The notes below the pieces were generated by a model. The model had not been told where the DNA came from. It saw only the letters and a list, made by a program, of their open reading frames with translations, and did not search any database. A stretch of DNA of 64,000 nucleotides from Candidatus Omnitrophota bacterium. GTDB taxonomy: Bacteria > Omnitrophota > Gorgyraeia > Aquiviventales > Aquiviventaceae. The number at the start of each line of letters is the position of its first letter. Positions within the stretch are counted from its first letter, which is position 1. Below are positions 58,735-62,345 of the stretch, piece after piece. The translations under genes were made by a program, and so were the position numbers. The DNA lies in the NCBI GenBank assembly GCA_023247255.1, contig JAHFGV010000004.1, positions 20,023-84,022 on the forward strand. Direction: 5' to 3'.

Positions 58735-58749
58735 CTTTAGATCGGTCCT

Positions 58750-58972
58750 TTAACAGGCTGCTGAAAAAGGCGCATCTGCTGCGTTACATCCCTTACGGCT
58801 TCGTCAGCGTACTTTCTAGTACGCGCCTCCTCAGCCGAATCGAGCTGCGCCTTGCATCTCGCACCTTTTTGAGCAGCCTAAGAGTGCCTAACATAATGAG
58901 CACATGGCTGCGATCATTATGTTAGGCACTCTAGTATCCCGTGGGTTTTTCAGCAATCTGTTAAACCGAGAT
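58750..58972. repeat. family-C MITE-like element (long variant) between ptsH and yvcK; its terminus overlaps the yvcK stop codon
   Basis: Termini ttaacaggctgctgaaaaagg ... tttttcagcaatctgttaaacc. There is an internal second palindrome (gtgcctaacataatgagcaca...cattatgttaggcac). The TAA stop of yvcK is the TTA of the terminal ctgTTAaacc. Confidence 0.75.
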
Positions 58973-60253
58973 GGCCGACGGCAAAATCGATGGATCGGTC
59001 GGCGGTCCATTCGTAGTCACGGTTCGATTCCGTGAACCAACGATGAGGTTAATGATGCTCCGCGCCACTTTTTCGGGATCATGACGAACCACCCCATCGG
59101 TACTCACCAAATCGTCGGCAACCACTTGATAGCCCAACGCTCGGATCCGTTGAATATCGGACTCGACTGGAAATGCGTCTTCTTGTCGATACCGATCCAG
59201 AAAAGCATCCGGAATCGGACCGGTATTGACCAGACACACCTGGATGATACCCGGATTAGTGTGGGACACCAAAGCCCGGACATGATCGCTCGCCTTATAC
59301 GCATGGGTCTCACGAGTTTGGGTCATCACATTGCAGATATATAATTTCAAGGCCTTGGATGCTACAATCGCATCCACCATCCGATCCACTAACAAATTAG
59401 GAATGATGCTGGTGTATAACGATCCGGGACCGAGCACAATGGCGTTGGCATCACGGATCTGGGCCAACGCCTCAGCAGTGGGTTGGCATCCGGCAGGTTC
59501 CAGATATACTCGGCGGATGGGCACCGGCGCTTTGGAAATCTGAGTTTCTCCACGGGTGACGCTGCCATCTTCATGCTCGGCAATCAGACATACTTTCGCA
59601 TTTGTCGCAGGCACCACCCGTCCTCGAATGGCCAACACTTTACTCGAAGCCTGCACCGCCTGCTCGAAATCTCCGGTGATCTGTGTCATAGCGGTAATGA
59701 AAAGGTTACCGAAATTGTGCCCGCGCAAAGGAGAATTGCCGCCAAATCGGTACTGGAACAACTGCTGCATGAGGGGTTCGGCATCTGCCAACGCAACCAG
59801 ACAGTTGCGGATGTCTCCTGGAGGCAATATGTCAAACTCCTCCCGAAGGCGTCCGGAGCTGCCTCCATCATCAGCAACGGTGACTATGGTAGTGATATTC
59901 GTGGTGTATTGTTTTAATCCATGAAGGATGGTTGACAGTCCTGTTCCACCCCCGATAGCCACAATCCGGGGCCCTTTCTCCAGATGCCGCCGTTGAAACA
60001 CCCTTTCGACCAGATCTTGTTGCGGTCGCGGGGAAACCACGTCCAACAGCGAACGGACAATGAGCACCACCCCCATGCTGAGCGAAGTCAACCCAATCAC
60101 TAGAATCCCCAAGCTGATGGCACGCTGGAAAATGTTATTTTCCACAGGCAAAAGCGCAGAACCAATGCCAAAACAGAACACCCCACCCAACGCCAGAAGA
60201 ACCCAGCGCTTAACCTGCATTCCAGGATAAAGCCATTTCAGAAATCGCATCAC
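58961..60253 (-). CDS. yvcK: YvcK/UPF0052-family gluconeogenesis factor (CofD-like) with N-terminal membrane anchor
   Basis: IVAIGGGTGLSTILHGLKQYTTNITTIVTVADDGGSSGRLREEFDILPPGDIRNCLVALAD... Two N-terminal hydrophobic helices. Confidence 0.85.
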   Translation of the reverse strand: MMRFLKWLYPGMQVKRWVLLALGGVFCFGIGSALLPVENNIFQRAISLGILVIGLTSLSMGVVLIVRSLLDVVSPRPQQDLVERVFQRRHLEKGPRIVAIGGGTGLSTILHGLKQYTTNITTIVTVADDGGSSGRLREEFDILPPGDIRNCLVALADAEPLMQQLFQYRFGGNSPLRGHNFGNLFITAMTQITGDFEQAVQASSKVLAIRGRVVPATNAKVCLIAEHEDGSVTRGETQISKAPVPIRRVYLEPAGCQPTAEALAQIRDANAIVLGPGSLYTSIIPNLLVDRMVDAIVASKALKLYICNVMTQTRETHAYKASDHVRALVSHTNPGIIQVCLVNTGPIPDAFLDRYRQEDAFPVESDIQRIRALGYQVVADDLVSTDGVVRHDPEKVARSIINLIVGSRNRTVTTNGPPTDPSILPSAISV

Positions 60254-60439
60254 AGCTTCTGCTCCTTAAAAACTCTCAGACGAAATAATCCGTAATCTAA
60301 AATCCGGAATCGACCCCGCCATCGGGCCAACAGCCGAAGGCATAGACCCAGTTGGTTTGCTTAAGCGAACGGCTGGGGCTATATTCCTACGTGTTTGACG
60401 TCGAGCGTTTCACTCGTCACTGATCACTGGCCACTGACT

Positions 60440-60600
60440 TAGCAGGCTGCGGAAAAACCCTTCGGGGTTCTGGGTTGAGGGTTCAGGGTTCGGGGCAAAT
60501 ACACCACCGCTCGTCGGTGATACGGGTCCTGGCCCCCAGCCCAGAACCCCGAACCCTGAACCGACTGGCATTTTTCAGCATCCTGTTAGTGGCGACGCTC
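60440..60600 (-). repeat. family-C MITE-like element, inverted copy of the 50130-50292 element; its terminus overlaps the ptsN stop codon
   Basis: The reverse complement is near-identical to 50130-50292 (ccactaacaggatgctgaaaaatgccagtcggttcagggttcggggttctgggctgggggccaggacccgt...). The ptsN TAA lies inside the terminal ctgttagtgg. Confidence 0.8.
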
Positions 60601-61077
60601 ATCCTCTTCACGAAGAATCTTCAGAAGGGTCTTTTCATCTTTAGCGGCGCGTAGACCTTCCCGAAAGTGCCGATCCTTAAGTAACCGAGAAATCCGAGCC
60701 AGTGCTTTCAGATGGGGACCCGCGGAATCCACTGGGGCAACGAGGAGGAAAATCAAATGAACCGTCTCCCCGTCAAGGGCGTTGAAATCCAGTCCCGATC
60801 GAGACACCCCAAACGCAGAGATCAATTCAGCTACGCAATCGGATTTTCCATGAGGAATCGCAACCCCTTGCCCAATTCCGGTAGATCCTAATGCTTCCCG
60901 CTCCATAAGCACTTGAATGAGCCGTTCCACATCTTTAGACTTGATCGCTCCCGCTTTCACCAACAAGCCAACCAACTCACGAATAGCCTCTTCTTTTGTC
61001 TGAGCCTTGACATCACATGAAATCGCGCGTTCGTTGAGAAACCCCATAATGTTCATAGGTTCACCTAAAATTTTCAC
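60586..61077 (-). CDS. ptsN: PTS EIIA-Ntr (nitrogen regulatory IIA protein)
   Basis: PTS_EIIA_2 fold: ...KEEAIRELVGLLVKAGAI...GIGQGVAIPHGKSD... (active-site His). Confidence 0.8.
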   Translation of the reverse strand: MKILGEPMNIMGFLNERAISCDVKAQTKEEAIRELVGLLVKAGAIKSKDVERLIQVLMEREALGSTGIGQGVAIPHGKSDCVAELISAFGVSRSGLDFNALDGETVHLIFLLVAPVDSAGPHLKALARISRLLKDRHFREGLRAAKDEKTLLKILREEDERRH

Positions 61078-61334: not shown

Positions 61335-61510
61335 AGCGGGTGATGGGATTTGGCGCTCTCCATCCTTCGCTTACGCTCGGAACTCCCAGTCGGCCACCCG
61401 TCTCGCCTAAGGAATCATGAAATTACCTGGGAATTTTCGATTGTCGATTTTGGATTTTCGATTGGAAGACGGCCGTTCAATCGAAAATCGACAATCGTCA
61501 ATCGACAATT
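61335..61510. repeat. repeat block downstream of tRNA-Gly: an 18-nt copy of the tRNA-Gly 3' end, a conserved ~65-nt segment, and a family-B palindrome
   Basis: agcgggtgatgggatttg (61335-61352) is identical to the 3' 18 nt of tRNA-Gly. It is followed by gcgctctccatccttcgcttacgctcggaactcccagtcggccacccgtctcgcctaaggaatcatg and gggaattttcgattgtcgattttggattttcgattggaagacggccgttcaatcgaaaatcgacaatcgtcaatcgacaat. Confidence 0.7.
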
Positions 61511-61577
61511 TCCTCGGCTCTCTTGATTGACCGAAGGCTCGGCTCCCTTCAAATCCCATCACAAGAGTCTAAAACCC

Positions 61578-61649
61578 AGCGGGTGATGGGATTTGAACCC
61601 ACGACTTTCACGTTGGCAACGTGACGCTCTACCACTGAGCTACACCCGC
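61578..61649 (-). tRNA. tRNA-Gly (anticodon GCC)
   Basis: The minus strand reads GCGGGTG TA GCTC AGTGGTA GAGC G TCACG TTGCCAA CGTGA AAGTC GTGGG TTCAAAT CCCAT CACCCGC T. It folds as a cloverleaf with a 7-bp acceptor stem, and the anticodon loop carries GCC. Confidence 0.85.
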
Positions 61650-61700: not shown

Positions 61701-61850
61701 TGGGCGAGAGAGGAGTTGGCGCCTTCCGCTCGTCACTGCGCTCCTCGCTTCAGGTCGGCCACCCGCCGCTCCTAAGGAATGTCAATCCTCCTATCCGTCG
61801 GATCGACGTTATTCGAAGTCGCGGCTCCTTTCAACTCCTCTCCTTTACGA
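61701..61850. repeat. repeat block downstream of tRNA-Leu: an 18-nt copy of the tRNA-Leu 3' end plus a conserved ~65-nt segment
   Basis: tgggcgagagaggagttg (61701-61718) is identical to the 3' 18 nt of tRNA-Leu. It is followed by gcgccttccgctcgtcactgcgctcctcgcttcaggtcggccacccgccgctcctaaggaat, homologous to the segment after the tRNA-Gly copy. Confidence 0.7.
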
Positions 61851-61853
61851 AAC

Positions 61854-61935
61854 TGGGCGAGAGAGGAGTTGAACCTCCACCCCTTTCGGGACAGGCTCCT
61901 AAGGCCTGCGCGTCTGCCAGTTCCGCCACTCGCCC
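61854..61935 (-). tRNA. tRNA-Leu (anticodon TAG)
   Basis: The minus strand reads GGGCGAG TG GCGG AACTGGCAGA CGCG CAGGC CTTAGGA GCCTG TCCCGAAAGGGGT GGAGG TTCAACT CCTCT CTCGCCC A. It has a long variable arm, U33, G37, anticodon UAG and discriminator A73. Confidence 0.8.
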
Positions 61936-62024: not shown

Positions 62025-62345
62025 GTGGAGCCCCACAGGATGAGCCTGTGGCACAGGCACTCCCACACCTTGGGATTTTCGATTGTCGATTTTGGATTGT
62101 CGATTGGAAGACGGTTGTTCAATCAAAAATCGACGATCGTCAATCGACAATTTCCTCGGCTCTCTTGATTGAAAGCTCATCTTCCTTCGATCTCCTTAGG
62201 ACGTTCAAAGAAACTGCCTTGGGATTTTCGATTGTCGATTTTGGATTTTCGATTGGAAGACGGCCGTTCAATCAAAAATCGACAATCGTCAATTGACAAT
62301 ATCGTGATGCAACCGTCGAGGGTTGGGGGCGCAATGGCGGGATTG
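62025..62345. repeat. family-A 5' fragment, two family-B palindromes, and a family-A 3' fragment
   Basis: ccccacaggatgagcctgtggcac (62025), then ttttcgattgtcgattttggattgtcgattggaagacggttgttcaatcaaaaatcgacgatcgtcaatcgacaat (62070-62150) and a second copy (62225-62300), then gggggcgcaatggcgggattgc (62315-62340). Confidence 0.7.

Follow-up and report, generated by a model that had tools for sequence, protein, structure and literature searches.

Candidate IS5-derived MITEs abut the ptsN and yvcK stop codons, with both stops located in 4-bp target-site duplications

Introduction

The insertion sequence IS5 duplicates the target 5'-YTAR-3' (PMC5009759). In the IS5 group of the IS5 family, represented by ISButh5-like elements and E. 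coli IS5, six autonomous elements encoding DUF772 plus DDE_Tnp_1 transposases combine a 4-bp YTAR duplication with the termini CAGGCTGC[T/G]GAAA. Both properties recur in short elements within a 64-kb stretch of DNA, referred to here as the window. Unlike autonomous IS5 elements, these elements are only 129-207 bp long, contain no transposase and have unrelated hairpins as interiors. They are miniature inverted-repeat elements (MITEs).

Several described MITEs share part of these features. The Tourist and mPing MITEs belong to PIF/Harbinger, the eukaryotic relatives of IS5. They are non-autonomous, are mobilized in trans and use a target which contains TAA or TTA, as is proposed here for the window MITEs. 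They duplicate 3 bp (TWA), whereas the window MITEs duplicate 4 bp. Among bacterial MITEs, the Correia, ERIC and RPE elements overlap the 3' ends of genes. Further examples are QMITE1 and QMITE2 from Coxiella, short inverted-repeat elements which lie at or overlap the ends of functional genes and give rise to stable RNA hairpins, as here (PMC5896051). The Coxiella elements overlap by 1-50 bp and can change the C-termini of the proteins (PMC5896051). In contrast, the proteins encoded next to the window MITEs are unchanged because the stop codon is located in the duplicated target.

Results

The window contains ptsN, yvcK, ptsH and ptsI, all four on the minus strand (Table 1). The gene order ptsN-yvcK-ptsH represents a conserved housekeeping operon and is the same in relatives without the elements. 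Two MITE copies, C3 and C4, are sited between genes of this set. A first-pass annotation had correctly assigned them to intergenic regions of the operon, C3 between ptsN and yvcK and C4 between yvcK and ptsH; the element limits given there, 60440-60600 and 58750-58972, overshoot the real ones by 12-15 bp. No base separates the stop codon of yvcK or that of ptsN from the inverted repeat of the neighbouring MITE. It had been proposed that both stops lie inside the element termini and are supplied by them. The stops do adjoin the elements, yet they are situated outside the inverted repeats in flanking 4-bp direct repeats. Because the 4 bp next to the termini form direct repeats, the stops are host sequence which was duplicated on insertion and are not part of the termini.

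Table 1. Coordinates in the window of the MITE copies, the duplications flanking C3 and C4, and the genes of the operon.
Feature	Start	End	Strand	Length	Description
MITE C1	47221	47349		129 bp	flanks TTAA/CTAA (not identical); intergenic, not at a stop codon
MITE C2	50145	50287		143 bp	flanks CTAA/CTAA; between divergent genes
MITE C3	60443	60585		143 bp	inverted repeats (TIRs) CAGGCTGCGGAAAAA and CAGGATGCTGAAAAA; interior is a hairpin of GGGTTCN units
MITE C4	58754	58960		207 bp	outer TIRs CAGGCTGCTGAAAAA and CAGATTGCTGAAAAA; internal TIR-like copy at 58861-58880
Duplication TTAG, gene side of C3	60586	60589			CTAA on the gene strand; holds the ptsN stop; identical to 60439-60442
Duplication TTAG, distal to C3	60439	60442			
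Duplication TTAA, gene side of C4	58961	58964			holds the yvcK stop; identical to 58750-58753
Duplication TTAA, distal to C4	58750	58753			15 nt upstream of the ptsH ATG
Extra sequence inside C4	58880	58940		~61 nt	near-perfect 52-nt hairpin at 58881-58932; unique in the window
ptsN (EIIA-Ntr)	60586	61077	minus		PF00359, E=7e-39; stop TAA is the complement of 60586-60588
yvcK (CofD-like)	58961	60253	minus		PF01933, E=7e-114; stop TAA is the complement of 58961-58963
ptsH (HPr)	58441	58734	minus		PF00381
ptsI (enzyme I, EI)	56705	58444	minus		PF05524, PF00391, PF02896

The copies C1 to C4 were defined by scanning the window with the 15-nt terminus CAGGCTGCTGAAAAA and allowing up to 3 mismatches. 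The scan gave 13 occurrences where 2.0 were expected. The inverted termini of the copies are 15-20 nt long, and three of the four copies (C2, C3 and C4) have identical 4-bp flanks. The inverted termini, the duplicated target, the multiple copies and the absence of a transposase gene agree with the earlier designation of the elements as MITEs. C3 matches C2, which has the opposite orientation, at 95.8% identity; this similarity suggests recent activity of the elements. The interiors of C3 and C4 are unrelated to each other. Metagenome contigs which carry the ptsN-yvcK operon end inside MITEs (L001 at its start, L002 at both ends), as expected because these are multi-copy repeats. The ORFs which overlap C3 are all short (53-59 aa). 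A gene caller annotated the 53-aa ORF, for which Pfam returned no match. A public assembly lists this ORF (60410-60571, minus strand), which is largely within C3, as a gene; it is probably spurious.

C4 can be aligned with copies of 144 bp which occur in MAGs of Methylomirabilia and Rokubacteria. These copies have the same internal TIR copy and are without the ~61 nt and the 52-nt hairpin present in C4. In the nearest relatives a GH57 glucanotransferase gene is located between yvcK and ptsH (L127, 5332-7332; L143, 5261-7291). A GH57 gene was absent from window positions 58735-58960 and from the whole 64 kb. With its three TIR-like sequences C4 was considered as a recombination scar which deleted the GH57 gene between yvcK and ptsH. 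This is unnecessary because the 144-bp copies in other phyla share the internal TIR and because the outer flanks of C4 are identical TTAA.

A scan for complete elements, with one genome per species, returned at least 120 loci. The 120 complete copies analysed comprised 118 from the loci listed and two of the window's own. Among the matches listed the hosts were mostly Acidobacteriota; the others were Nitrospirota, Methylomirabilia (Methylomirabilota), Rokubacteria, Binatia and alpha-, gamma- and deltaproteobacteria. The flanks were identical over 4 bp in 70 of the 120 copies among the matches listed. Identity at other lengths was seen in 2 (2 bp), 0 (3 bp), 4 (5 bp) and 1 (6 bp) of these copies. 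CTAG was the commonest 4-bp flank among the matches listed (21 copies), followed by TAAA (13), TTAG (8), TTTA (6), TGAA (6), CTAA (4), TTCA (4) and TTAA (3). CTAG, TTAG, CTAA and TTAA form one class with the consensus YTAR. The target-site duplication is 4 bp, and at this class of sites it is YTAR. A preference for TTA/TAA, as suggested by the first-pass annotation, is retained in the sense that the target contains these triplets; a duplication of the 3 bp TTA is at odds with the above counts (0 versus 70 of 120 among the matches listed). At Acidobacteriaceae loci (L006, L011, L013, L015, L022, L028, L058 and about 30 others) the duplications were TAAA, TTTA, TGAA and TTCA. They are located in the loop of a G+C-rich hairpin, e.g. 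cggggcTAAA-MITE-TAAAgccccg. This looks like insertion into REP-like palindromes by a target rule other than YTAR.

The parent family was approached with a short query containing the terminus, which had many plasmid matches. The match in Eleftheria terrae adjoins an annotated IS5-family transposase; the element has 1355 bp, the termini CAGGCTGCTGAAATAC and the flanks CTAG/CTAG. Its transposase contains DUF772 and DDE_Tnp_1 and scored 292 bits on NCBIfam NF033581 (IS5 family, cut-off 140). Five further homologs, 45-72% identical and with the same termini, were found in Sinorhizobium fredii NGR234, on two Skermanella plasmids, in Cupriavidus and as ISButh5 in Burkholderia. The six autonomous elements (1265-1355 bp) are on proteobacterial plasmids, not in the window's lineage, and have the termini CAGGCTGC[T/G]GAAA. 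Five of them are flanked by identical CTAG or CTAA, that of Skermanella mucosa by CTAG/TTAG. Both variants of the MITE terminus, CTG and CGG, are present among them. Because the termini and the 4-bp duplication are common to autonomous IS5-family elements, C3 and C4 can, on sequence grounds, be classified as IS5-derived MITEs. A transposase with these termini was present neither in the 64-kb window nor in the MITE-bearing loci listed; when the 120 listed loci and the window were searched for autonomous copies, only pairs of separate MITEs emerged (e.g. L071). The MITE family was not found in a literature search by terminus sequence. Apparently, it is undescribed but ordinary.

A metagenome scan with PtsN identified 80 related loci of 58-77% identity. 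The terminus motif was present in none of the 80. Comparison of ptsN 3' ends in relatives without the element, as the first-pass annotation had suggested, showed that the closest orthologs stop after the same end codon (...EEDERRH), mostly with TAA. As the end position is shared by orthologs which lack the element, the ptsN stop is ancestral. The stop is preceded by a His codon with a pyrimidine as its third base, and a YTAA target is thus already present in this clade. One relative, L132, also shares the downstream flank. It reads CAT TAA ATCAGTGGCCAGTGA, the window reads CAC TAA [143-bp MITE + CTAA] GTCAGTGGCCAGTGA; L132 represents a precise empty site for the ptsN insertion. It had been anticipated that a TAA shared with orthologs would indicate a chance overlap. 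For ptsN the TAA is indeed shared, yet the stop codon itself was the target.

The C-terminal tail of YvcK is too variable to align an empty site. Among the closest YvcK orthologs the contig of P0002 ends 27 nt past a stop at a different position, and the tails do not align. Here it is the TTAA duplication which suggests an ancestral stop. When C4 and one TTAA were removed in silico, the TAA was followed by 15 nt, including AAGGA, and then by the ptsH ATG. In more distant relatives with adjacent yvcK and ptsH genes the spacer is mostly 1-30 nt and at most 94 nt. With C4 it is extended from 15 to 226 nt; the ribosome-binding site of ptsH is intact.

We propose, with a probability of about 0.88, that IS5-derived MITEs mobilized in trans inserted at YTAR sites which included the two stops, that the duplication rebuilt these stops and that disruptive insertions were lost. 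An IS5-type DDE transposase supplied in trans would recognize the termini CAGGMTGCKGAAAAA and make a 4-nt staggered cut at YTAR (CTAG, CTAA, TTAG or TTAA). Repair would then duplicate those four bases. In every YTAR at least one of the strands contains TAA or TAG; a stop codon after a pyrimidine would be a ready-made target. The gene-side duplicate would rebuild the original stop and, because the target site is duplicated, leave the protein unchanged. Insertions at stops would be tolerated and those inside genes lost, presumably by purifying selection. In this manner one copy would have inserted onto the ptsN stop (C-TAA) and another one onto the yvcK stop (T-TAA). Mobilization in trans is suggested by the absence of a transposase from the window. 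Several observations speak against the proposal as a whole: the window and the MITE-bearing loci listed yielded no transposase with these termini, the autonomous elements are proteobacterial, the flanks of C1 differ, the YvcK tail offers no alignable empty site, and stops are somewhat over-represented among perfect YTAR duplications (see below).

Is the association with stop codons greater than such targeting predicts? Among the matches listed, the stops of long ORFs had a sharp peak directly abutting the terminus (24 sides, 23 of 120 elements). As a null we used uniform choice among YTAR sites at which an insertion leaves long ORFs intact. The window has 41 intergenic YTAR sites and 18 which coincide with a long-ORF stop, so that stops make up 30% of the tolerated sites. 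An exact stop junction is very unlikely for random positions and is expected for a YTAR-targeting element. Two of the four window copies are at stops (P for at least 2 of 4 = 0.36); these two are unremarkable. In the pooled loci 23 of 63 copies were at stops compared with 27% under the null (P=0.06, among the matches listed). Perfect YTAR duplications stratified by tetranucleotide had 16 of 28 copies at stops versus 9.9 expected (P ~0.014), and with a 200-codon ORF cut-off the figures were 10 of 30 versus 4.9 (P ~0.017), both among the matches listed. The pooled and the stratified tests disagree, and both rest on crude ORF calling. The stop-codon pattern is mostly explained by YTAR targeting plus the loss of disruptive insertions. 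Family-wide, the residual excess is two-fold at most. It could originate from neutrality just past stops, from selection for 3'-end positions or from the crude ORF calling.

A second peak of long-ORF ends coincides with the TGA of CAGGCTGC-TGA-AAAA, 8 nt into the terminus (L029, L044, L046, L061, L089). This common terminus variant carries its own stop for genes which read into the element. For a small number of loci it looks as if insertion took place 1-8 codons ahead of the original stop; in these cases the stop may indeed come from the terminus.

The predicted RNA folds of C4 and C3 have energies of -105 kcal/mol (z = -7.8) and -79.8 kcal/mol (z = -3.3), respectively. Inside C3 and C4 there was neither a terminator-like site (G+C-rich stem plus U tract) nor a promoter-like site on the transcribed strand. 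Rfam at the gathering score assigned no family to the elements, and its matches in the window were two tRNAs only; the hairpins had weak, chance microRNA-like matches. One may ask whether, on top of the neutral insertion history, the hairpins owe their retention to an action on the ptsN-yvcK-ptsH-ptsI transcript as 3'-end stabilizers, RNase III sites or partial attenuators which uncouple expression. We consider this unlikely. Very stable predicted hairpins immediately after the stops, the lengthened yvcK-ptsH spacer and the modest family-wide excess of copies at stops are compatible with such a role, and ERIC, Correia and REP elements are precedents for effects on mRNA. Precedents for MITEs have been reviewed (PMC10969869). 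However, the elements lack terminator- or promoter-like sites on the transcribed strand, their interiors are unrelated, and none of the 80 related loci has the insertions, which therefore are recent and lineage-specific. By analogy with other MITEs (PMC10969869), C3 and C4 may possibly affect the processing of the operon mRNA.

More generally, the family might have adapted to gene ends as safe harbours, with hairpins in operons such as ptsN-yvcK-ptsH reshaping the processing of polycistronic mRNA. This is based on copies with intact duplications, which abut stops about 1.6-2 times as often as under the uniform null, and on the stop carried by the common variant of the terminus. We rate this as quite doubtful and prefer IS5-type insertion at YTAR, followed by loss of disruptive insertions.

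Discussion

Other identities of the elements must be weighed against IS5-derived MITEs. According to one, the stops come from the termini, which contain TTA, and the target is a 3-bp TTA/TAA in the style of PIF/Harbinger and Tourist. TTA does adjoin the inverted repeat at the operon copies, and PIF/Harbinger, a relative of IS5, makes TWA duplications. Yet among the matches listed no copy of the 120 had a 3-bp duplication, compared with 70 with 4 bp, and C2 is flanked by CTAA, not TTA. Further, the flanks differ between copies (CTAG, TTAG, TAAA and others) and therefore are host sequence. For ptsN this possibility is refuted as the stop at that codon pre-exists in orthologs which lack the element; overall it is very improbable.

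We give almost no credence to IS630/Tc1-mariner-type MITEs which insert at CTAG, duplicate TA only and have the outer bases as part of the inverted repeat. The MITE termini resemble the ends of Tc1 and IS630 (CAGTGCTGGCCAAAAAG), and IS630 prefers CTAG. However, the non-palindromic direct repeats TTAG (8), CTAA (4) and TAAA (13) among the matches listed are impossible products of a TA duplication, and the transposases encoded by autonomous elements with these termini belong to the IS5 family and not to IS630. Finally, integron attC sites or REP/REPIN palindromes located after genes, rather than transposons, can practically be dismissed: the elements are imperfect palindromes directly after ORFs and one end, GTTAAAC, fits the attC core GTTRRRY, but C3 reads GTTAGTG, which does not, the 15-nt termini are conserved and have 4-bp direct repeats, autonomous IS copies share them, and the genes on either side belong to a conserved housekeeping operon with the same order in relatives without the elements.

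Insertion of IS5-derived MITEs at YTAR thus remains our preferred explanation. It reduces a striking stop-codon pattern to a simple outcome of IS5-type target choice, and by itself the finding raises no new biological question. For annotators it means that ORFs called within these repeats are spurious and that assemblies are fragmented by them. The MITE family has a wide distribution (Acidobacteriota, Nitrospirota, Methylomirabilota, Rokubacteria, Proteobacteria), and cataloguing it may be worthwhile.

Additional repeats were observed in the vicinity. After the ptsN stop there are hairpins or arrays of tandem 7-nt units in the window (60395-60438) and at L132, L133, L139, L152, L161 and L164. 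The heptamer unit differs by locus (CAGTGAC, TGTGGAN, GATGCTN, GGCTCAA, GAGTGAC). These units are reminiscent of the cyanobacterial STRR heptamer repeats. The same style of 7-nt units is seen inside the window MITEs, GGGTTCN in C2 and C3 and GGCTCNA in C1. A 106-nt hairpin repeat of CGATTTT/CGATTGT units is present in three copies (61425-61530, 62067-62172 and 62216-62321) near two tRNA genes. The 3' 18 nt of tRNA-Gly(GCC) have an exact duplicate 243 nt downstream (61335-61352 and 61578-61595), those of tRNA-Leu(TAG) an exact duplicate 153 nt downstream (61701-61718 and 61854-61871). Each of these duplicates adjoins a common 42-nt repeat (61374-61415 and 61739-61780). The arrangement looks like small insertions into tRNA 3' ends.
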